The notes below the pieces were generated by a model. That model worked only from the letters and a program-made list of their open reading frames with translations. It had not been told where the DNA came from and did no database searches. The position numbers and the translations under genes were made by a program. Below, piece by piece: positions 7,443-36,430 of a stretch of 64,000 nucleotides of DNA. The DNA is taken from sequence record ON229909.1. One strand, given 5' to 3'. The first letter of the stretch is position 1, and each line of letters begins with the position of its first letter. The DNA comes from Escherichia phage vB_EcoM_CE1.

Positions 7443-8098
7443 GCTATTCTCTCAAAATAATAAAATACCGTAGGTTGTGTGTGACTATCTAGCGTGACAG
7501 TTTGCGCACCTAATAATTGCCAAGTTCCGTATCCAGGTTTAGAAGGAGAAATTATTTCCTGTTTGAAAGTAATTCCTTTATCAGAGTATTGTTCTAAGAT
7601 ATGTTCTTGGTTATCTAAATACTTAACTTGTATTTTATTTCCTATGGTAGGATGGTCTTCAAATGAATCAATTGCAATAAATTTTGCAACCATTTCCTGT
7701 AGAGCTGTTCTAACGGCACTGGTAAATTCGATTGAAGTCATTCCGTTGGTAGCTTTAACAGGAATGCCAAACATGTTAACAATAACTGGGTCTCCGGGTT
7801 TAGCTGAAGTATCAGTAACAGTTCCTTCAAATGACCAATAGTCTGTTTGCTGCACGCCAGTAGGAGATACGCCGCTTATATTAACTAATACAGCTCCAAC
7901 TTGTTGCTCTGCCATATTTCTAACATCATTGATAGCAGATTCTACATTTGGGTCATAAAAACCCTTTGCTATTTGTGAAATTGTTACAGCGCCTACTGGC
8001 TGATTATTCATAACCGAAATATCATTTTTCTTAGTTCTAAAACCAAGAAAATCTGCTAAGCGGGAAATAACTCCCGCTTTATTATTAAGTAAACTCAT
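7439..8098 (-). CDS. 11: baseplate wedge / short tail fiber attachment protein
   Basis: ORF track 7439..8116; start moved to internal ATG 8098 (ATGA overlap with gene 10 stop) giving 219 aa as in T4. Confidence 0.8.
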
Positions 8099-9903
8099 TA
8101 TGCAATCCTTATCCAACGGTATACAGTAATAGACGGTTGAATATTACTAATATTAGTAGGAGGAGTATGTGAAGAGTTTGTTGTTGCGTAGTCTTCACGA
8201 TATTTTGTATATATAGGACCAGTTTCGTCTGGGTCATATTGACAACCTCCAATAATAACTGATCCGTTTTCATCTTCAATTAAAACTTTTTCATCAGTTT
8301 TAGTCGCAGGAAGATTTGCGTTCTCAAGTGTCACCGATGTTGTTCCAACTGTTCCACCGGCAGTATGTGAAGGATTTCCGCTAGAATCTAAATCATTATT
8401 GTTTAAAGCAAAGTTTGGATCCGTAACATCATCATTCCATCCTACTAAAACTTGTCCTTTACCAAATAATTTCCATGAACCAAATCCCATATAAGTCACC
8501 GGATTATTTGGATTTATAGCATTTTCATAAATTGAACCAACAGGATAAATGCTGTCGAAAATAGATGATATTGAATTATACATTCTAGTATAAGAATCAA
8601 CTTTTTCAACATTTGGCCAACCGATTTTATCAAAATCTGTTAAGGCTACATCACCAGTAACTTCGGTAGATGATCCTTTGCTAACATAACGGTCATCCGT
8701 TAATTCAATAATGTCATCTTTTTCTAAAAGAGTTCCTAAATCATTATTGAACCACGTTATAACGATTATATCACCTGATTCAAATTTTCTATCAAATAAA
8801 AGACTGGTAGGTTTTCCATCTTCATATTCTATAGAATAATCTGTGTTTGATTCTTTCCATTCACCACCAAGAGATATACAACCTTCTCGCGTATCTGAAC
8901 TAGCGCCTTCACACAAAAACAGAGGATATCCAGCGGTTCCAGCCTGCTGCTGTAAAATTCCATTAAAACGAACCTCAAGAGAATTAGGATTAATGGGTTC
9001 ACCAGGAATTAATCCAAATGCAGAAAATGGAATTGATTTCATCGCCGATAAATCAGTAACATAAATGCTTCCTTCTAAAGAAGTCTTTGATGTTAGTTTT
9101 GAATCTAGTACTTTTATTTGGCGTCTTGTATATGAACTTCTCCATTGTGATACACCATCCATAAATGTTTCAATTTGAACGGTGTCACCAATATTACAAG
9201 GCTGTCTTAATCGAATATTAAATCCATCAAGAGGAACTAATTCGCCTTCATTTTCGCCCGGAGAGCCAAAGTCACTATTTTCGCTAAATACATCACCGTA
9301 ATACAATTCGTTACCACGATGTTTTACTCTGATGTTATTGACATTATAACTAGTTCCATTAAAAACATCTAAAAAGTCTGTTTGCCCTTGAACTTCGACT
9401 AAAAATTCTTTACGAGCTACATTACTAATGTCTGAACTAATAATTTTATCAATTTGCTTATTTTTGACATACTCCCAACGTCCTGGAGCGCAATAAACGA
9501 GCTCTAAATCACTAAATTGAATATTAATTTCAACTGACGATGACGACCCTTTAATTGTATCTCCGGAAGCAGCTACTAAAGTAACTGGATTGATGTTCCA
9601 TGTAGCGAATACGTCTCTAGCTCTAATTACCTTGTTGTAATCATTAACAGTTCCTTTAGGAAGTTGTAGAGTTACTCTTCCAGACGAAGTATTAATGGCA
9701 TATGATTTTCCCCATTCTGCCGTTAGTGTTTGTCCAGATGAAGCATCATAAGTTTTCCAGGCACCGGCTGAATATGGAACATCTCCATCACCAAGTTCAT
9801 AATAAAGTTCATCAAAGTTTTCATTTATTTTTATACCACCTTTACGCAGGTAGTCACCGGTACCATCATCAACAACATTACCGATATTAATATTTTGTTT
9901 CAT
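8098..9903 (-). CDS. 10: baseplate wedge protein
   Basis: 601 aa, position and size as T4 gp10. Confidence 0.85.
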
Positions 9904-26391: not shown

Positions 26392-26464
26392 TGGGAATTA
26401 GCCAAGTTGGTAAGGCATAGCACTTTGACTGCTAGATGCAAAGGTTCGAGTCCTTTATTCCCAG
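26392..26464 (+). tRNA. tRNA-Gln (anticodon UUG)
   Basis: Hand-folded cloverleaf; acceptor tgggaat/attccca; anticodon loop ctTTGac; T-arm GGTTCGAGTCC. Confidence 0.8.
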
Positions 26465-26465
26465 C

Positions 26466-26552
26466 GCGAGAATGGTCAAATTGGTAAAGGCACAGCACTT
26501 AAAATGCTGCGGAATGATTTCCTTGTGGGTTCGAGTCCCACTTCTCGTACCA
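26466..26552 (+). tRNA. tRNA-Leu (anticodon UAA), long variable arm, encoded CCA
   Basis: Acceptor gcgagaa/ttctcgt; anticodon loop ctTAAaa; 1-nt spacer after tRNA-Gln (dimeric precursor as in T4). Confidence 0.8.
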
Positions 26553-26558
26553 AAGTTT

Positions 26559-26630
<72 letters not shown>

Positions 26631-26642
26631 AAATTTAATTTA

Positions 26643-26716
26643 CTCCGTGTAGCTCAGTTTGGTAGAGCGTCTGCTTTGGGAGCAGAATGTCGCAGGTTCA
26701 AATCCTGCCGCGGAGA
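26643..26716 (+). tRNA. tRNA-Pro (anticodon UGG)
   Basis: Acceptor ctccgtg/cgcggag; anticodon loop ttTGGga; T-arm GGTTCAAATCC. Confidence 0.75.
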
Positions 26717-26718
26717 CT

Positions 26719-26805
26719 GGAGGCGTGGCAGAGTGGTTTAATGCACCGGTCTTGAAAACCGGCAGTCGCTCCGGCGATTCATAGGTTCAAATCCTATCGC
26801 CTCCG
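26719..26805 (+). tRNA. tRNA-Ser (anticodon UGA), long variable arm
   Basis: Acceptor ggaggcg/cgcctcc; anticodon loop ctTGAaa. Confidence 0.75.
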
Positions 26806-26812
26806 TAATTTC

Positions 26813-26885
26813 GCTGATTTAGCTCAGTAGGTAGAGCACCTCACTTGTAATGAGGACGTCGGCGGTTCGATTCCGTCAATCAGCA
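26813..26885 (+). tRNA. tRNA-Thr (anticodon UGU)
   Basis: Acceptor gctgatt/aatcagc; anticodon loop ctTGTaa. Confidence 0.75.
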
Positions 26886-26891
26886 TATCAA

Positions 26892-26963
26892 GGCCCTGTA
26901 GCTGGAAGGTTCAAGCAAGCGACTCATAATCGCCAGATGGTGGTTCAATTCCACCCAGGGCCA
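26892..26963 (+). tRNA. tRNA-Ile (anticodon CAU, lysidine-type; Met not excluded)
   Basis: Acceptor ggccctg/cagggcc; anticodon loop ctCATaa; T4 cluster order puts Ile here. Confidence 0.65.
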
Positions 26964-27004
26964 TATTTTGAGAACATAAATACTCTTAGAAATAGGAGAT
27001 ATTT

Positions 27005-27670
27005 ATGTTCCATTACATTTATAAAATAACAAATAAAATTAATAATAAAATTTATATTGGTGTGCATTCTACCGAAAATTTAGATGATGGATATATGGGT
27101 TCTGGTAAATTATTAAAAAGAGCCCAAGATAAGTATGGTATAGAAAATTTTTCTAAAGAAATATTAGAGTTCTTTGACGATAAAACCTCTATGTTTGAGA
27201 CAGAAAAGAATATTGTGACTGAAGAGTTTTTAAAGCGCCCTGATGTTTATAATTTGAAATTAGGTGGTGAAGGTGGATGGGACCATTTAAACACTAAAGA
27301 ATATTTGGATAAAAAGAAAGAAGCTTCCTTAAAAGGAGCTGCCGCTTTTAAAACCAGATTTGAGAACGACCCAGACCTTAAAGAAAAATATCGTAAAATG
27401 GGTTCAGAAAGGTTTAAACAGCTTTGGGATAATCCTAAGTATAGAGAGAAATTTTTAAATACTAAATCTTTCTTGGGTAAGACCCATACTCCTGAAACTA
27501 TTAATAAAATGAAAGAATCTCACGCCAGAAATAAACACCAACAAAGTGAAAAGAATTCCCAATTTGGCATGATGTGGATTCATTCATTAGATGAAAAAGT
27601 TTCTAAACGTATTAAGAAAACTGACCCAATTCCAGAAGGATGGTTTAAAGGTCGAAAAATGAAATTTTAA
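27005..27670 (+). CDS. segB: GIY-YIG homing endonuclease SegB inside tRNA cluster
   Basis: 221 aa, FHYIYKITN...YIGVHS GIY-YIG motif; located between tRNA-Ile and tRNA-Arg as in T4. Confidence 0.85.
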   Translation: MFHYIYKITNKINNKIYIGVHSTENLDDGYMGSGKLLKRAQDKYGIENFSKEILEFFDDKTSMFETEKNIVTEEFLKRPDVYNLKLGGEGGWDHLNTKEYLDKKKEASLKGAAAFKTRFENDPDLKEKYRKMGSERFKQLWDNPKYREKFLNTKSFLGKTHTPETINKMKESHARNKHQQSEKNSQFGMMWIHSLDEKVSKRIKKTDPIPEGWFKGRKMKF

Positions 27671-27673
27671 TTA

Positions 27674-27750
27674 CGGGGCATAGCTCAATTGTATAGAGCA
27701 ACGGATTTCTAATCCGTTGGTTGAAGGTTAGAATCCTTCTGCCTCGACCA
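27674..27750 (+). tRNA. tRNA-Arg (anticodon UCU), encoded CCA
   Basis: Anticodon loop ttTCTaa; T-arm and acceptor 3' tgcctcg-a-cca; 5' end assignment approximate. Confidence 0.65.
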
Positions 27751-31359: not shown

Positions 31360-31703
31360 ATAAAGTCAAATATTCGTTTCCTGAGTCATTTTTAATTTTT
31401 GCTGTGGCGTTGGCTGCAGCTCTTGCGGGTAGTCTTTTTGGATTGTTAATTGACTGTCTTATTTTAAACATCGACGGCACAGTAAATATAACAGAAGTTT
31501 GGAGTGAACTTCACTATACTAAAATTATTTCATTATTTTCATTCTTTGGTACCATGTTATATTTTCATTATGATAATTTTAAAATAAATTGGCAAAGAAA
31601 AAAGGATTACAAAATACAATTAAAAGAATATAATAGCTACATGTCTTATATTGAAAATGAATCAATGAAAGAGTTTGTGAGTGATTGCAGGAAATTAAAA
31701 TGA
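31341..31703 (+). CDS. hypothetical membrane protein
   Basis: 120 aa with hydrophobic segments. Confidence 0.5.
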   Translation: MQKPKLNKVKYSFPESFLIFAVALAAALAGSLFGLLIDCLILNIDGTVNITEVWSELHYTKIISLFSFFGTMLYFHYDNFKINWQRKKDYKIQLKEYNSYMSYIENESMKEFVSDCRKLK

Positions 31704-32140
31704 AAACATTATCAGCTGGTATTATCTTTATGACCGAAGATAAAGATTTATTCATGGGACGGGTTACTGGTTCTCGTAAGCCTGGAATGATGGCACATCG
31801 CTGGGATATCCCAAAGGGCCGCGTAGAAAATTCTGATTTAAGCGTACTAGATGCAGCACGAAGAGAATGTTTAGAAGAGACTGGTTTTAGCAATTATAAT
31901 CCAGACCTTCTAGAAGACCTAGGTGTATTTAAATATTCTAGTAATAAAGACTTACAGTTATTTTATTATACGATTCCAGTAGAGCATGAGATGTTTAGAA
32001 ATTGCCATTGCGAGTCTTATTTTGAAAATAAAGATGGCGTTATGATTCCAGAGATGGACGCTTTTGCTCTTATTCCTCGTACTCAGTGGCAATATGTGAT
32101 GGGTCCTTCACTTTACCGAATAATGAACAACCTCTTTTAA
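31685..32140 (+). CDS. nudE: Nudix hydrolase
   Basis: 151 aa, Nudix box RRECLEETGF; adjacent to e as T4 e.1/nudE. Confidence 0.85.
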   Translation: MQEIKMKTLSAGIIFMTEDKDLFMGRVTGSRKPGMMAHRWDIPKGRVENSDLSVLDAARRECLEETGFSNYNPDLLEDLGVFKYSSNKDLQLFYYTIPVEHEMFRNCHCESYFENKDGVMIPEMDAFALIPRTQWQYVMGPSLYRIMNNLF

Positions 32141-32671
<531 letters not shown>

Positions 32672-32675
32672 AGTT

Positions 32676-32705
32676 GTTTACTTTCTCCTAGAACTGTGAT
32701 AGTAT
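32676..32705 (+). promoter_or_regulatory. T4-type early promoter
   Basis: gtttac ... tgatagtat upstream of ip-like gene. Confidence 0.6.
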
Positions 32706-32748
32706 ATTCACAGTTACTAATTAAAATATTTACATTTAAAGGAAACAT

Positions 32749-33222
32749 ATGAAAACATATCAAGAATTTATTACTGAAGCAGCTATTAATTCTCAAATTA
32801 TTGCTGAATCTTTTACTGATCTTTTGAAATTTAAAAAAGGACAGAAAATTACTGCTGTATTAGATGATGGCACAGAAGTTGAGATGGATGTACAGGGATA
32901 TAATTATGCAGTAGATGGAAAACTGTATAATAAATCTCATGCTAAATTTGATTCATTTGATGATTTTGTTAATACAGTTGAAGATGAAAAAACTCGTCGA
33001 TCCATTGCAACTGGTGATGCTAAGGTTCTTATGGCGCATGGACATGAACGTATTCGCGCTAAACAGAATAAAATGGGTGAAGATAATTTCGCATTAGTTG
33101 GTTATCAATCTGGTAAACAAACTTATGGTTATCAGCGTACTGCTACCATGTATAATAAAAATGGTAAAATCGCTTTCGTGAATAGTAAAGGTTCTATTCA
33201 GTACGTTAAATCGTTCAAATAA
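32749..33222 (+). CDS. internal protein (IPIII/IPII-like; CTS MKTYQEFITEA)
   Basis: 157 aa with canonical T4 capsid-targeting N-terminus; exact IP type not resolved. Confidence 0.7.
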   Translation: MKTYQEFITEAAINSQIIAESFTDLLKFKKGQKITAVLDDGTEVEMDVQGYNYAVDGKLYNKSHAKFDSFDDFVNTVEDEKTRRSIATGDAKVLMAHGHERIRAKQNKMGEDNFALVGYQSGKQTYGYQRTATMYNKNGKIAFVNSKGSIQYVKSFK

Positions 33223-33363
33223 CATGGGAACAACCTGGACCTCATGATTCTGTGAGGGATTCCCGCCAACCTGTAATAAGGTCGAGCCCAAGTGCGGTAA
33301 TGGGTAAATACAGAAATGGACAATTCATGCGCCATGGAATGGCCCAAATTTAGAGAGAATAAA

Positions 33364-33903
33364 ATGAGAACATTTTTAACTGGTCCTTATCTATCCCTGA
33401 TGAATGCTTTTACACACCATTCTGATGCTAGAGTAGAAGAAATTTGTAAAAACGATTATATCCCACCATTTGAAGACTTACTCAAACAGTATTGCACACT
33501 TCGACTAGATGGTGGCAGACAATCTGGTAAATCAACTGCAGTAACTAATTTTGCCGCTAATTGGTTGTATGACGGTGGAACAGTTATTGTTCTTTCTAAT
33601 ACTTCAGCTTATGCTAAAATTTCCGCAGATAATATTAAAAAGGAATTTTCGCGTTATTCTAATGATGATATTCGATTCCGCTTATTTACTGATTCTGTCC
33701 GTAGTTTTGTTGGTAATAGAGGTAGCAAGTTCAGAGGTTTATCGCTTTCTCGAATTTTGTATATAATCGATGAGCCTGTTAAATCTCCTGATATGGATAA
33801 AATTTACGATATTCATATTGAAACTGTGCAACACTGCTGCAATAGTAAATGCTGCATTGGTGGTATTACTCGTCCACAGTTTTTCGTAATCGGAATGCAA
33901 TGA
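33364..33903 (+). CDS. small P-loop NTPase with terminase-ATPase-like Walker A (GGRQSGKST) and Walker B (RG.S...ILYIIDE)
   Basis: ORF track 33316..33903; start moved to ATG 33364 (SD gagag); motif spacing parallels gp17 ATPase core in this window. Confidence 0.55.
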   Translation: MRTFLTGPYLSLMNAFTHHSDARVEEICKNDYIPPFEDLLKQYCTLRLDGGRQSGKSTAVTNFAANWLYDGGTVIVLSNTSAYAKISADNIKKEFSRYSNDDIRFRLFTDSVRSFVGNRGSKFRGLSLSRILYIIDEPVKSPDMDKIYDIHIETVQHCCNSKCCIGGITRPQFFVIGMQ

Positions 33904-34229
33904 TGACAGATACGCAACTTTTCGAATATCTTTATTTTTCGCCAAAAACTATTAAAAATAAATTGGTGAATCATTTTGAAATTTTGGCAAATAACAACGT
34001 CTTGAGCGAATTTTATCCTAAGCAATACAAATTACAAAAAGGCGTATTCAAAGGATGCAGAGTTTTGTGTACTGCTCCTAATGCACGGCTAATGAATAAA
34101 ATTCCATATTTTACCATGGAATTTATTGATGGACCTTTTAAAGGACTAATCACCCAAAGTTTAATGGCATATGATTCTGAGCCGTTTTTAATTAAAGAAC
34201 AATCTTGGATAAATTTATTTTCTAATTGA
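33900..34229 (+). CDS. hypothetical protein
   Basis: ORF track 33849..34229; start moved to MMTDT ATG overlapping upstream stop. Confidence 0.5.
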   Translation: MMTDTQLFEYLYFSPKTIKNKLVNHFEILANNNVLSEFYPKQYKLQKGVFKGCRVLCTAPNARLMNKIPYFTMEFIDGPFKGLITQSLMAYDSEPFLIKEQSWINLFSN

Positions 34230-34235
34230 GGTTAT

Positions 34236-34598
34236 ATGAAAGCATATCAAATTCTTGAAGGCACACATAAAGGTACTATTTATTTTGAAGATGGTATTCA
34301 AGCACGAATTATTGTCTCTAAAACCTTTAAAGAGGACTCTTTTGTAGACCCAGAAATTTTCTATGGTTTGCATGCCCGTGAAATTGAAATTGAAACACAA
34401 CCTACAGTTAAAATTGAAGGTGGTCAGCACCTGAACGTTAACGTTCTGCGTCGTGAAACTCTGGAAGATGCAGTTAAGCATCCGGAAAAATATCCGCAGC
34501 TGACCATCCGTGTATCCGGATACGCAGTTCGCTTTAACTCTCTGACTCCGGAACAGCAACGCGACGTTATTGCTCGTACCTTTACTGAGAGTTTGTAA
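34236..34598 (+). CDS. autonomous glycyl radical cofactor (GrcA/YfiD-like)
   Basis: C-terminal [25 protein letters not shown] glycyl-radical motif; C-terminal half uses E. coli-like codons. Confidence 0.85.
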
Positions 34599-34819
34599 TG
34601 GCAAAGATAATTATTGAAGGTTCTGAAGATGTGCTAAATGCTTTCGCCGAATGGTTTAGTAATTCAGGCGAACAGCAATTTAACGAAGCGTGGAACATGG
34701 GTGATATTAATGGAATTTATCCTACGACAGAAATTTCTGTTCAAGGATATGGCATTAATGAGCCTATTCGTTTAGTTGAATATGATTTGGGAACAGGTGA
34801 GGAAGTAAAATATGATTGA
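34598..34819 (+). CDS. hypothetical protein
   Basis: 73 aa ORF, ATGA-overlapped. Confidence 0.5.
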   Translation: MAKIIIEGSEDVLNAFAEWFSNSGEQQFNEAWNMGDINGIYPTTEISVQGYGINEPIRLVEYDLGTGEEVKYD

Positions 34820-35078
34820 AGACATTAAAGGTTATAAGCCACATACTGACGATAAAATCAGTAAAGTGAATGCTATCAAAGACGCTGAAGTTCGTTTAGG
34901 ACTTATCTTTGATGCTTTATATGATGAATTCTGGGAAGCGCTAGATAATTGTGAAGACTGTGAATTCGCGAAGAATTATGCTGAAAGTCTCGATCAGTTA
35001 ACTATTGCTAAAACGAAACTCAAAGAAGCCAGTATGTGGGCTTGTCGTGCTGTGTTCCAACCAGAGGAAAAATATTAA
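34812..35078 (+). CDS. hypothetical protein
   Basis: 88 aa ORF. Confidence 0.5.
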
Positions 35079-35356
35079 TGGCCCAATTAAGCGCAGGGTT
35101 TGGTTATGAGTATTATACTGCCCCTCGTCGTGTATCTGTCGCTCCTAAGAAAATTCAAAGTCTTGATGACTTCCAGGAAGTAGTCCGTAACGCTTTCCAG
35201 GACTATGCACGTTATCTTAAAGAAGATTCACAGGACTGTCTCGAAGAAGATGAAATTGCTTACTATGAGCAGCGTCTTGAACAGCTCAAAAATCTACATG
35301 AGGTTCGTGCAGAAGTTTCAAAGTCTATGAATAAATTGATTAGATTTAAAGAATAA
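35078..35356 (+). CDS. hypothetical protein (T4 vs.x-like position)
   Basis: ORF track 35036..35356; start moved to ATG 35078 overlapping upstream stop. Confidence 0.5.
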
Positions 35357-35358
35357 CT

Positions 35359-35388
35359 GTTTACTTTTCCTCTTGACTGTGGTATAAT
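35359..35388 (+). promoter_or_regulatory. T4-type early promoter (GTTTAC, TTGACT, TGtGGTATAAT)
   Basis: Strong sigma70-like elements 28 nt upstream of regB. Confidence 0.7.
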
Positions 35389-35415
35389 TTTTCTATCAGT
35401 TAAGAGGAGAATAAC

Positions 35416-35877
35416 ATGACTATCAATACAGAAGTTTTTATCCGTCGAAATAAGCTCCGTCGTCACTTTGAGTCGGAGTTTCGTCAAATTAACAATGAGA
35501 TTCGTGAGGCATCAAAAGCAGCAGGGGTCTCATCGTTTCATCTAAAATATTCTCAGCATCTTCTTGACCGTGCAATTCAACGGGAGATTGATGAGACATA
35601 TGTTTTTGAATTATTCCACAAAATAAAAGACCATGTTTTAGAAGTTAATGAATTCCTGAGTATGCCTCCGCGTCCTGACATTGACGAGGATTTTATTGAT
35701 GGGGTTGAATATCGTCCTGGACGTTTAGAAATCACAGATGGAAATCTTTGGCTTGGATTTACAGTTTGTAAACCTAACGCGAAGTTCAAAGACCCGTCAC
35801 TTCAATGTAGGATGGCAATTATCAACAGTCGTCGTTTACCAGGAAAGGCTTCTAAAGCAGTAATTAAAACTCAATGA
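35416..35877 (+). CDS. regB: site-specific endoribonuclease RegB
   Basis: 153 aa, matches remembered T4 RegB. Confidence 0.9.
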   Translation: MTINTEVFIRRNKLRRHFESEFRQINNEIREASKAAGVSSFHLKYSQHLLDRAIQREIDETYVFELFHKIKDHVLEVNEFLSMPPRPDIDEDFIDGVEYRPGRLEITDGNLWLGFTVCKPNAKFKDPSLQCRMAIINSRRLPGKASKAVIKTQ

Positions 35878-35884
35878 GGTAAGC

Positions 35885-36430
35885 ATGAGAAAAGCACTAC
35901 TCGCTGGTCTATTGGCCATTTCAATGATGGCACATAGCTCCGAGCATACTTTCAGTAATGTCCAACTCGATAACATGCGTTACGCGTATCAATTCGGGGA
36001 ACAATTTTCTAAGGATGGAAAATATAAAACACATAAAAATATCCACAAGGGTGGATTAGGTCATATAATGGCTGCTATTTTATGGCAAGAAAGCTCTGCC
36101 GGAGTTAATTTAAAATCTAAACCAAAGCATCACGCTTATGGAATGTTCCAAAATTATTTGCCTACTATGCGAGCGAGAGTTAAGGAACTTGGTTATAATA
36201 TGACCGATGCTGAAATAAAAAGAATGTTGAATAAACGGTCCAATTCAGCTTCCTGGGCGTACATTGAACTTTCTTATTGGTTAAATATACATAAGGGCGA
36301 TATAAGAAAGGCAATATCCTCTTATAATTCGGGATGGAATGTTAAAGCAGGTTCTAAATATGCTTCTGAAGTCCTAGAAAAGGCTAATTACCTTAAAAAT
36401 AATAAACTTTTGGAAATAGTAAATGACTAA
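35885..36430 (+). CDS. secreted lytic transglycosylase-like protein (SLT domain)
   Basis: Signal peptide; SLT-like motifs WQESSAG and AYGMFQ. Confidence 0.65.
   Translation: MRKALLAGLLAISMMAHSSEHTFSNVQLDNMRYAYQFGEQFSKDGKYKTHKNIHKGGLGHIMAAILWQESSAGVNLKSKPKHHAYGMFQNYLPTMRARVKELGYNMTDAEIKRMLNKRSNSASWAYIELSYWLNIHKGDIRKAISSYNSGWNVKAGSKYASEVLEKANYLKNNKLLEIVND

Follow-up and report, generated by a model that had tools for sequence, protein, structure and literature searches.

Which gene occupies positions 33,223-33,903 of a 64,000-nucleotide (nt) stretch of Escherichia phage vB_EcoM_CE1 (record ON229909.1; the whole stretch is called the window below), and what is the GC-rich gap that precedes it? 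The original prediction had read the region as a module replacement, in which a small terminase-ATPase-like protein sits where T4 carries denV and ipII. We find that the open reading frame (ORF) of about 179 amino acids (aa) on which this proposal was built is real (33364-33903, plus strand) and that sequence comparison identifies it as the orthologue of T4 vs.8: its product is 88% identical to T4 Vs.8 (NP_049732, T4p119), it matches the PHROG 1488 profile almost from end to end (E 1.9e-79; residues 3-179 align with positions 2-177 of the 177 in the profile), and the window and T4 DNA align base for base here, leader included. The gene is present in ~1010 phage records, all of them T4-like phages of enterobacteria, and its family is narrow, with 50 clusters among 1.84 billion representative proteins, every one small. 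vs.8 is thus a known, already catalogued T4 gene, annotated as a conserved hypothetical protein, and a literature search for vs.8 returned no relevant paper. The unusual feature is instead the leader, which the original prediction had mentioned in passing. Overall, we consider it likely that the region is best explained as a vs.8 orthologue encoding a RecA-like, gp17-related NTPase, preceded by a conserved non-coding leader RNA that may form a self-contained module.

The leader spans 141 nt (33223-33363, plus strand). Its description as ORF-poor and comparatively GC-rich holds (GC 0.45 at 33223-33363, against 0.24-0.38 nearby), as does the lack of a recognisable promoter, since no sigma-70-like promoter lies inside it; nor did we find a terminator within 33223-33363. 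Comparison across phages shows that the leader holds a conserved RNA of ~90-120 nt, which is predicted to fold into a nested pseudoknot and a three-way junction. In the window, the covariance model and the covariation place this motif at 33226-33313 on the plus strand. Its outer helix P1 pairs GGGAA (33226-30) with UUCCC (33260-64) and encloses P3, a variable hairpin formed by CCUCA (33240-44) and UGAGG (33253-57). The 5′ strand of the pseudoknot (CUG, 33235-37) lies between P1 and P3, while its 3′ strand (CAG, 33311-13) follows the entire domain. The three-way junction is made of P4 (GCC, 33265-67, with GGGU, 33302-05), P5 (ACCU, 33269-72, with AGGU, 33279-82, and the loop GUAAUA; ACCUGUAAnAAGGU) and P6 (GCC, 33286-88, with UGC, 33293-95, in a GNC...UN'C pattern), and is completed by the junction strand GGUAAU (33296-301), whose GGUAA is conserved.

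Support for this structure comes from compensatory change. Beyond the window, P1 takes the forms AAAGG/CCUUU, AAAGC/GCUU, AAAGA/UCUUU and GGGG/CCCC, and the pseudoknot the forms CCG/CGG, CGC/GCG, CCA/UGG, ACAC/GUGU and CUCGA/UCGAG. In a set of 23 long-form sequences, the paired share of cells is 90.9%, compared with 25-45% when the partners are slid against each other, the covariation score is 0.258 versus at most 0.063, and all 4 pseudoknot pairs change on both sides. The same contrast is seen for P1, P4, P5 and P6 in 66 distinct sequences (91.3% paired versus 21-47% with slid partners; covariation score 0.475 versus at most 0.092). The covariance model was built without the pseudoknot, and P6 also lies outside it; P6 nevertheless covaries in the set of 66. 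The G-U pairs point to the plus strand as the one that folds. Searched with the model, the window yields a single copy (33222-33320, 58 bits, E 7e-13). Rfam 15 contains no match to the leader at E up to 10, and none to six diverse copies at E up to 5. RNAalifold recovered two hairpins and no more from a mixed alignment, because MAFFT had misaligned the short and long forms and because the structure is pseudoknotted.

We then consider where this RNA occurs. Among 35 IMG/VR loci that encode Vs.8 relatives (the loci compared here carry an L and a number), the covariance model places the motif upstream of vs.8 and on the same strand in 34, as well as in T4, and two loci (L014 and L025) carry tandem copies. 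The leader is conserved beyond the level of the coding sequence (CDS), whichever gene sits upstream, and is near-invariant across the window, T4 and the phages P8 and PD112. The RNA is also found outside this group. In the Vequintavirus phage nimi, a 43-nt core is 95% identical and the flanking helices covary. When IMG/VR was scanned with a pattern and the candidates were passed to the model, 71 matches resulted, ~30 of them on contigs that are not T4-like. In 21 of 30 such loci, tRNA genes are found on the strand of the motif and within ~0-550 nt of it. In L101 it begins 1-5 nt past the CCA end of a tRNA-Ser and is followed by an intrinsic terminator. One contig (L119) was considered as T5-like, which could have made the motif one of the small stable RNAs of T5, but the region around its motif matched rV5-like phages, not T5. 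The window has a tRNA cluster of its own at 26392-27750, and its motif copy lies outside it. A tight pattern run against 596 Gb of bacterial and archaeal genomes gave 1 match, in a Dehalococcoidales metagenome-assembled genome (L125), which the covariance model did not confirm. The motif is therefore restricted to phages and nearly absent from bacterial genomes, and in GenBank records its site is either unannotated or covered by a hypothetical ORF.

What might this RNA do? We take it to be most likely, at about an even chance, a self-contained folded module in the 5′ untranslated region of vs.8, either a stable or processed non-coding RNA or a self-processing element, and not a switch specific to vs.8. 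Unrelated phages have the same RNA within tRNA operons, and in some T4-like phages a gene separates it from vs.8, which together argue for a self-contained module. What follows the motif also differs by locus (vs.8, an internal protein (ip) gene, tRNAs or a promoter), and this variation in downstream context disfavours a vs.8-specific switch. The readings as module, cis-regulator and ribozyme overlap as categories.

Of the competing explanations, the one that survives best is a cis-acting leader, riboswitch-like or protein-binding, that would control vs.8 together with vs.7, vs.6, vs.5, acb2, vs.3 and regB in response to a ligand. Several features fit it: the junction and loop nucleotides are highly conserved while the helices vary and covary, as in an aptamer; the motif precedes vs.8 in nearly all of the compared loci; two loci carry tandem copies; the motif and intrinsic terminator of L101 have the classical aptamer-plus-terminator layout; and a conserved hairpin adjoins the ribosome-binding site. 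Against this, the motif of most non-T4 phages sits among tRNA genes, where no ORF stands out as regulated, a sigma-70-like promoter lies 3′ of the motif in nimi, a different gene follows it in L020, and we found no conserved alternative pairing with the Shine-Dalgarno sequence. A switch through pairing of CCUUU with a downstream AAAGG was likewise tried and dropped, as it is not conserved in the AAAGC/GCUU forms. We therefore regard ligand-responsive control as possible, though on the unlikely side.

If translation of vs.8 is controlled in cis, the hairpin that adjoins the ribosome-binding site is a better candidate operator than the RNA motif itself. This distal hairpin, GCCA-UGGAA-UGGC (GCCAUGGAAUGGC), lies at 33331-33343 (to 33345 with the CC that follows), ~20 nt before the start codon, and displays GGA in its loop. 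It has one exact occurrence in the window and is found in 33 of the 35 vs.8 loci, where GGCA/UGCC and GACA/UGUC occur as compensatory variants. Locus L020 (region 1068-1421) has an extra ip gene (MKTYKEFI...) between the RNA motif and vs.8, with the hairpin GUGCCAAGGAAYGGCCC on each side. These two bracketing copies suggest that the hairpin may serve as a recombination point or cassette boundary for ip genes. In L022, L024 and L031 the motif lies at the same distance of ~450 nt upstream of vs.8, and these loci likely share an L020-type ip insertion.

The hairpin is followed by a Shine-Dalgarno-like GAGAG and the conserved vs.8 ATG (33353-33366), read from the sequence, with a start that is kept in the homologues. 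The ribosome-binding region as a whole, AGAGAGAAUAAAAUG (33350-33366), resembles the target consensus of RegB and S1, GGAGAAUAAAA (PMC1702504), without its GGAG; the T4 counterpart reads UAGAGAAGAAAUG. Because GGAG is missing from AGAGAGAAUAAAAUG, the vs.8 ribosome-binding region may escape cleavage by RegB. We set aside the RegB/S1 paper as evidence on the vs.8 leader, as it deals with the ribosome-binding site of denV instead.

Turning to the protein, the motifs that had drawn attention to the ORF are well conserved. The Walker A motif or P-loop, GGRQSGKST (aa 50-58; 33511-33537, plus strand), has the Arg-Gln before GK(S/T) that is typical of the terminase large subunit (TerL), and both hhalign and hmmsearch align it with SRQLGKTT of gp17. 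The second block (33733-33777, plus strand) comprises R124-G125, a candidate arginine finger, and the Walker B motif with the catalytic glutamate, ILYIIDEP (D136, E137), and aligns with RGNSF..IYIDE of gp17. Vs.8 thus shows the motifs with TerL spacing: a Walker A of the form RQxGK(S/T), an Arg-Gly ~12 residues ahead of an hhhhDE Walker B, and the catalytic Glu. Across 19 homologues (to 40% identity), the Walker A columns G50 to K56 (R52 to K56 among them), R113, R124, G125, E137 and P138 do not vary, D136 hardly does, and the initiating methionine of the 179-aa form is invariant as well. Homologues elsewhere are labelled 'endoribonuclease' or 'terminase large subunit'.

The parallel that had been drawn between these two blocks and the gp17 encoded in the same window is borne out, since the family profile covers gp17 residues 140-265 (E 1.3e-6), a match that extends from before Walker A to beyond Walker B. 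Searched against the PDB, the 40-member profile finds the T4 gp17 ATPase as its best match (E 1.3e-6 to 5.7e-6), and the single Vs.8 sequence finds a terminase-large-subunit family in PHROG (E 1.3e-6). The signal is remote, however. A 19-sequence profile aligned with gp17 by hhalign gave Walker A alone (probability 22%), and a convincing match needed the 40-member profile. Against Pfam, the single sequence gave P-loop matches below threshold (AAA_14 and Terminase_6N), with PF03237 Terminase_6N at 14.0 bits compared with a gathering cut-off of 22. Among the 40 family members, AAA_14 is the most common Pfam match and Terminase_6N the second, the latter in 9 of 40 at E up to 0.01 (best 1.4e-4). 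In addition, Vs.8 has no ATPase subdomain II, no coupling (C) motif, no RNase H-like nuclease domain and no Terminase_6C match; its C-terminus lies 42 residues past Walker B, and its model has a single domain. The earlier description as terminase-ATPase-like accordingly stands as far as remote homology goes, in PHROG and with the 40-member profile, and fails at the Pfam Terminase_6N threshold and for want of the other terminase parts. We judge the resemblance to be real but remote, fair but weak as sequence homology, and because subdomain II, the coupling motif and the nuclease domain are lacking, Vs.8 is not a terminase.

The AlphaFold2 model (pLDDT 81.7, pTM 0.83) has one five-stranded alpha/beta domain after a long N-terminal helix. 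Foldseek against the PDB yields generic RecA-like ATPases at TM 0.4-0.5. Against BFVD, it returns many P-loop proteins, small and uncharacterised, that are encoded by large myophages and jumbo phages. The fold is generic, and helicases match it equally well, so that Vs.8 might be regarded as a fragment of a helicase-type, RNA- or DNA-dependent NTPase, similar to the first RecA domain (RecA1) of superfamily 2 (SF2), and not a relative of terminases. We find this unlikely: Vs.8 lacks a second RecA domain as well as the DEAD/DExH, Q and SAT motifs, gp17 is its best solved relative by sequence, and the fold is in any case common to the TerL ATPase and the SF2 RecA1 domain. Taken together, the profile matches and the model show Vs.8 as a single predicted RecA-like (ASCE) P-loop domain whose nearest solved relative in sequence is the ATPase subdomain of gp17.

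The gene arrangement suggests a partner. The ATG of vs.7 overlaps the vs.8 stop codon (ATGATGA), which suggests that the two genes are translationally coupled. The overlap between the vs.8 stop and the start of the next gene is kept in nearly all of the 35 loci; in 26 of these, the search detects a homologue of vs.7. From the motifs, the likeness to gp17 and the stop/start overlap, we infer that Vs.8 most likely would hydrolyse NTP as an oligomer, with the active site completed in trans by R124, and that it probably works together with Vs.7. On the protein side little changes; Vs.8 can nevertheless be described, defensibly, as a minimal NTPase of terminase-like or RecA-like type that is coupled to Vs.7, and K56, E137 and R124 become targets for mutation.

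Several points weigh against this overall interpretation. On its own, the window leader folds no more stably than shuffled sequences (z = +0.6). The covariation was measured on related sequences, and both phylogeny and the fitting of alignments to the model can inflate it. The tight linkage of the motif to vs.8 in 34 of 35 T4-like loci is also expected of a cis-regulator, and the motif may already be present, unnamed, in bulk catalogues such as PMC10690425. As for the protein, oligomerisation, NTPase activity and the partnership with Vs.7 are all inferred, and the predicted structure of Vs.7 is unusable (pLDDT 43).

A third explanation, distinctly doubtful in our view, is that the RNA is a self-cleaving ribozyme that cuts at its 5′ edge and so sets the downstream RNA free from the mRNA or tRNA that lies upstream, as do the theta ribozymes, gut-phage ribozymes of the hepatitis delta virus (HDV) type that adjoin phage tRNAs (PMC10879173). 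The order of the strands (P1, P2 as the pseudoknot, P3, P1′, P4, P2′) is that of the HDV type, P1 starts where the upstream gene has its stop codon or, in L101, 1-5 nt past the tRNA 3′ end, and the phage tRNA context is the one in which theta ribozymes occur. The features that define the HDV fold are absent, however, and membership in the HDV-like or theta class fails for this reason: P3 has 5-12 bp or is missing altogether, where HDV has 3 bp and an L3 loop; there is no P1.1; no conserved C is seen in J4/2, which reads UAAAUA in the window and is reduced to ~0-1 nt in L046-type copies; and no Rfam ribozyme model matches.

We come back to the claim that the locus is a replacement. The 3.9-kb stretch around the flagged ORF is 98% identical to the Tequatrovirus phages SP21535 and PD112 and is matched by ~900 T4-like records. 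In the window, all on the plus strand, nudE (31685-32140) and e (32177-32671) are followed by an internal virion protein gene (32749-33222; Pfam DUF7412, E 5.7e-96; PHROG 3155 'internal virion protein'), the leader and vs.8, and then by the orthologues of vs.7 (33900-34229, 109 aa, 98% identical to T4 Vs.7) and vs.6 (34236-34598), vs.5 (34598-34819), the vs.4 orthologue (34812-35078), vs.3 (35078-35356) and regB (35416-35877). The vs.6 orthologue encodes a GrcA-like glycyl-radical protein with a C-terminal Pfam Gly_radical domain (E 2.2e-18), a spare part for pyruvate formate-lyase of the GrcA/YfiD kind. The vs.4 orthologue, four genes 3′ of vs.8 and on the same strand, encodes Acb2 (Pfam Acb2_Tad1_hairpin, E 1.2e-19; annotated acb2 in phage P8), a sponge that counters the cyclic oligonucleotide-based antiphage signaling system (CBASS).

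It had been assumed that T4 has just denV and ipII between e and regB. The T4 order is in fact e, ipIII, ipII, denV, vs.8, vs.7, vs.6, vs.5, vs.4, vs.3, regB, and comparison of the e-regB interval shows that T4, P8 and PD112 all carry vs.8 there, with an identical order from vs.8-vs.7 to regB. An IPII-sized gene had also been reported missing. The gene at 32749-33222, whose product begins with MKTYQEFI as T4 IPII and IPIII do, is an internal-protein gene and fills the place between e and the RNA motif that the variable ip/denV cassette takes. That denV is not recognisable holds true, as tblastn with T4 DenV finds no match in the whole 64-kb window (best E 1.5). The differences between the window and T4 are confined to the variable cassette that separates e from vs.8 and that here contains one DUF7412 internal-protein gene and no denV; downstream of it, sequence comparison shows vs.8 to be conserved across T4-like enterobacterial phages, upstream of vs.7, vs.6, vs.4 (Acb2) and regB. 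In the record of phage IME537 (MT179807.1), whose layout is equally denV-less, the interval matching window positions 32100-36000 bears the label 'putative pyrimidine dimer DNA glycosylase'. No ORF in this interval resembles DenV, and the label was thus probably carried over by position.

In light of this gene order, a TerL-derived mini-ATPase module that replaced denV/ipII, and that would act as a packaging modulator or part of an anti-defence system, is very improbable. The TerL-like motifs and profile matches, the absence of denV from the window and the presence of the anti-CBASS gene acb2/vs.4 (34812-35078) in the same cluster speak for it. T4, however, has the gene at the same position along with denV and ipII, which refutes the replacement by the very criterion that the original prediction had set; P8 and similar relatives hold both denV and vs.8, in P8 together with the ip genes; neither PADLOC nor NCBIfam gives anything significant for Vs.8, with no match to a defence or anti-defence family; and the shared fold is the sole tie to the packaging genes.

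The T4 record (NC_000866 64253-64912; L003 3754-4413, minus strand) gives vs.8 as 219 aa, starting 40 codons further upstream and running across the RNA motif. In T4, 8 nt just ahead of the ribosome-binding site are duplicated (CTTATAGAG twice), and the 219-aa frame exists because of this duplication only; in the window, the same GTG ORF is not in frame with vs.8 and stops at 33353. The T4 start is therefore probably mis-assigned and the 219-aa product an annotation artefact. The duplication shifts the upstream frame, yet conservation of the leader exceeds that of the CDS, which indicates that the leader is non-coding. That the leader instead encodes the beginning of Vs.8, as 219 aa in T4 or as 195 aa from the ATG at 33316, receives some comfort from the T4 record, from gene callers that produced 194-196-aa versions in other phages and from a frame that is open from 33316, but is hardly credible, as the T4 frames merge by the duplication only, the extensions in other phages translate the conserved hairpin in differing frames, all homologues start at the MRTF/MK..L..YL methionine, and the paired columns covary, G-U pairs included, as RNA would. 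Our result would correct the vs.8 annotation in T4 and in those T4-like records that place an ORF over the leader.

The gp17 used for comparison is itself unusual in this phage. Its N-terminal part, which holds the motif SRQLGKTT, is encoded at the window start on the minus strand (1338 to 445); another ORF considered as gp17 (8098-9903, minus strand) gave no hhalign match. Gene 17 is broken exactly after the Walker B motif 'IYIDE', from where the N-terminal ORF continues into a 41-aa, intein-N-like tail that ends in AQK, and an endonuclease ORF on the same strand, which begins near 458, is cut off by the start of the window. Phage SG1, which is near-identical, has a TnsA-like endonuclease ORF of 199 aa, followed by a C-terminal ORF whose first 107 aa end in '...VESHN' and then give way to 'CAFIPNFHDSW', the exact continuation of T4 gp17. 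As read from these ORFs, gene 17 carries an atypical, naturally split intein with an endonuclease ORF between its halves, an arrangement present in ~12 of 793 T4-like records.

It is tempting to speculate that the leader RNA is the first member of a new class of functional RNA confined to phages, either a ribozyme or a ligand- or protein-sensing switch, that was overlooked in T4 and is shared with the tRNA operons of unrelated virulent phages; we put this forward tentatively. In T4-like phages the motif heads the cluster that includes the anti-CBASS gene acb2 and, if this reading is true, could tie RNA processing or sensing to the expression of accessory and counter-defence genes. In any case, a strongly covarying, pseudoknotted RNA that has no Rfam family sits in the best-studied phage, masked by an over-long CDS. 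It is common to T4-like phages, Vequintavirus and other tRNA-carrying phages, and offers a testable candidate for a new class of ribozyme, riboswitch or stable non-coding RNA.

How do the protein and the RNA compare with known systems? The terminase gp17 (Pfam Terminase_6N; PDB 2o0h, 3cpe, 3ezk) has 610 aa, compared with 179 aa for Vs.8, and where a gp17-type terminase has the TTT coupling motif, Vs.8 ends in G-M/T/V-Q. Terminase genes lie among the late packaging genes, whereas vs.8 is encoded among accessory genes near regB. The two copies of vs.8 considered here also differ in their surroundings: in T4 the upstream neighbour is denV and the annotation is long, while in the window an internal-protein gene lies upstream; both have the same leader RNA.

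Stable phage RNAs that are co-encoded with tRNAs include T4 species 1 and 2, which correspond to rnaC and rnaD, and the GOLLD and ROOL RNAs. GOLLD and ROOL are in Rfam and are 5-8 times larger than the leader RNA. Like all of these, the leader RNA is a structured phage RNA in or beside tRNA arrays, but it shares neither sequence nor model similarity with them. With theta ribozymes (PMC10879173), it has in common that it is small, pseudoknotted and near phage tRNA genes and that its helix strands follow the same nested order. In contrast to theta ribozymes, it occurs in enterobacterial phages and carries, in place of the HDV core, the conserved three-way junction of ACCUGUAAnAAGGU ... GNC/UNC ... 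GGUAA.

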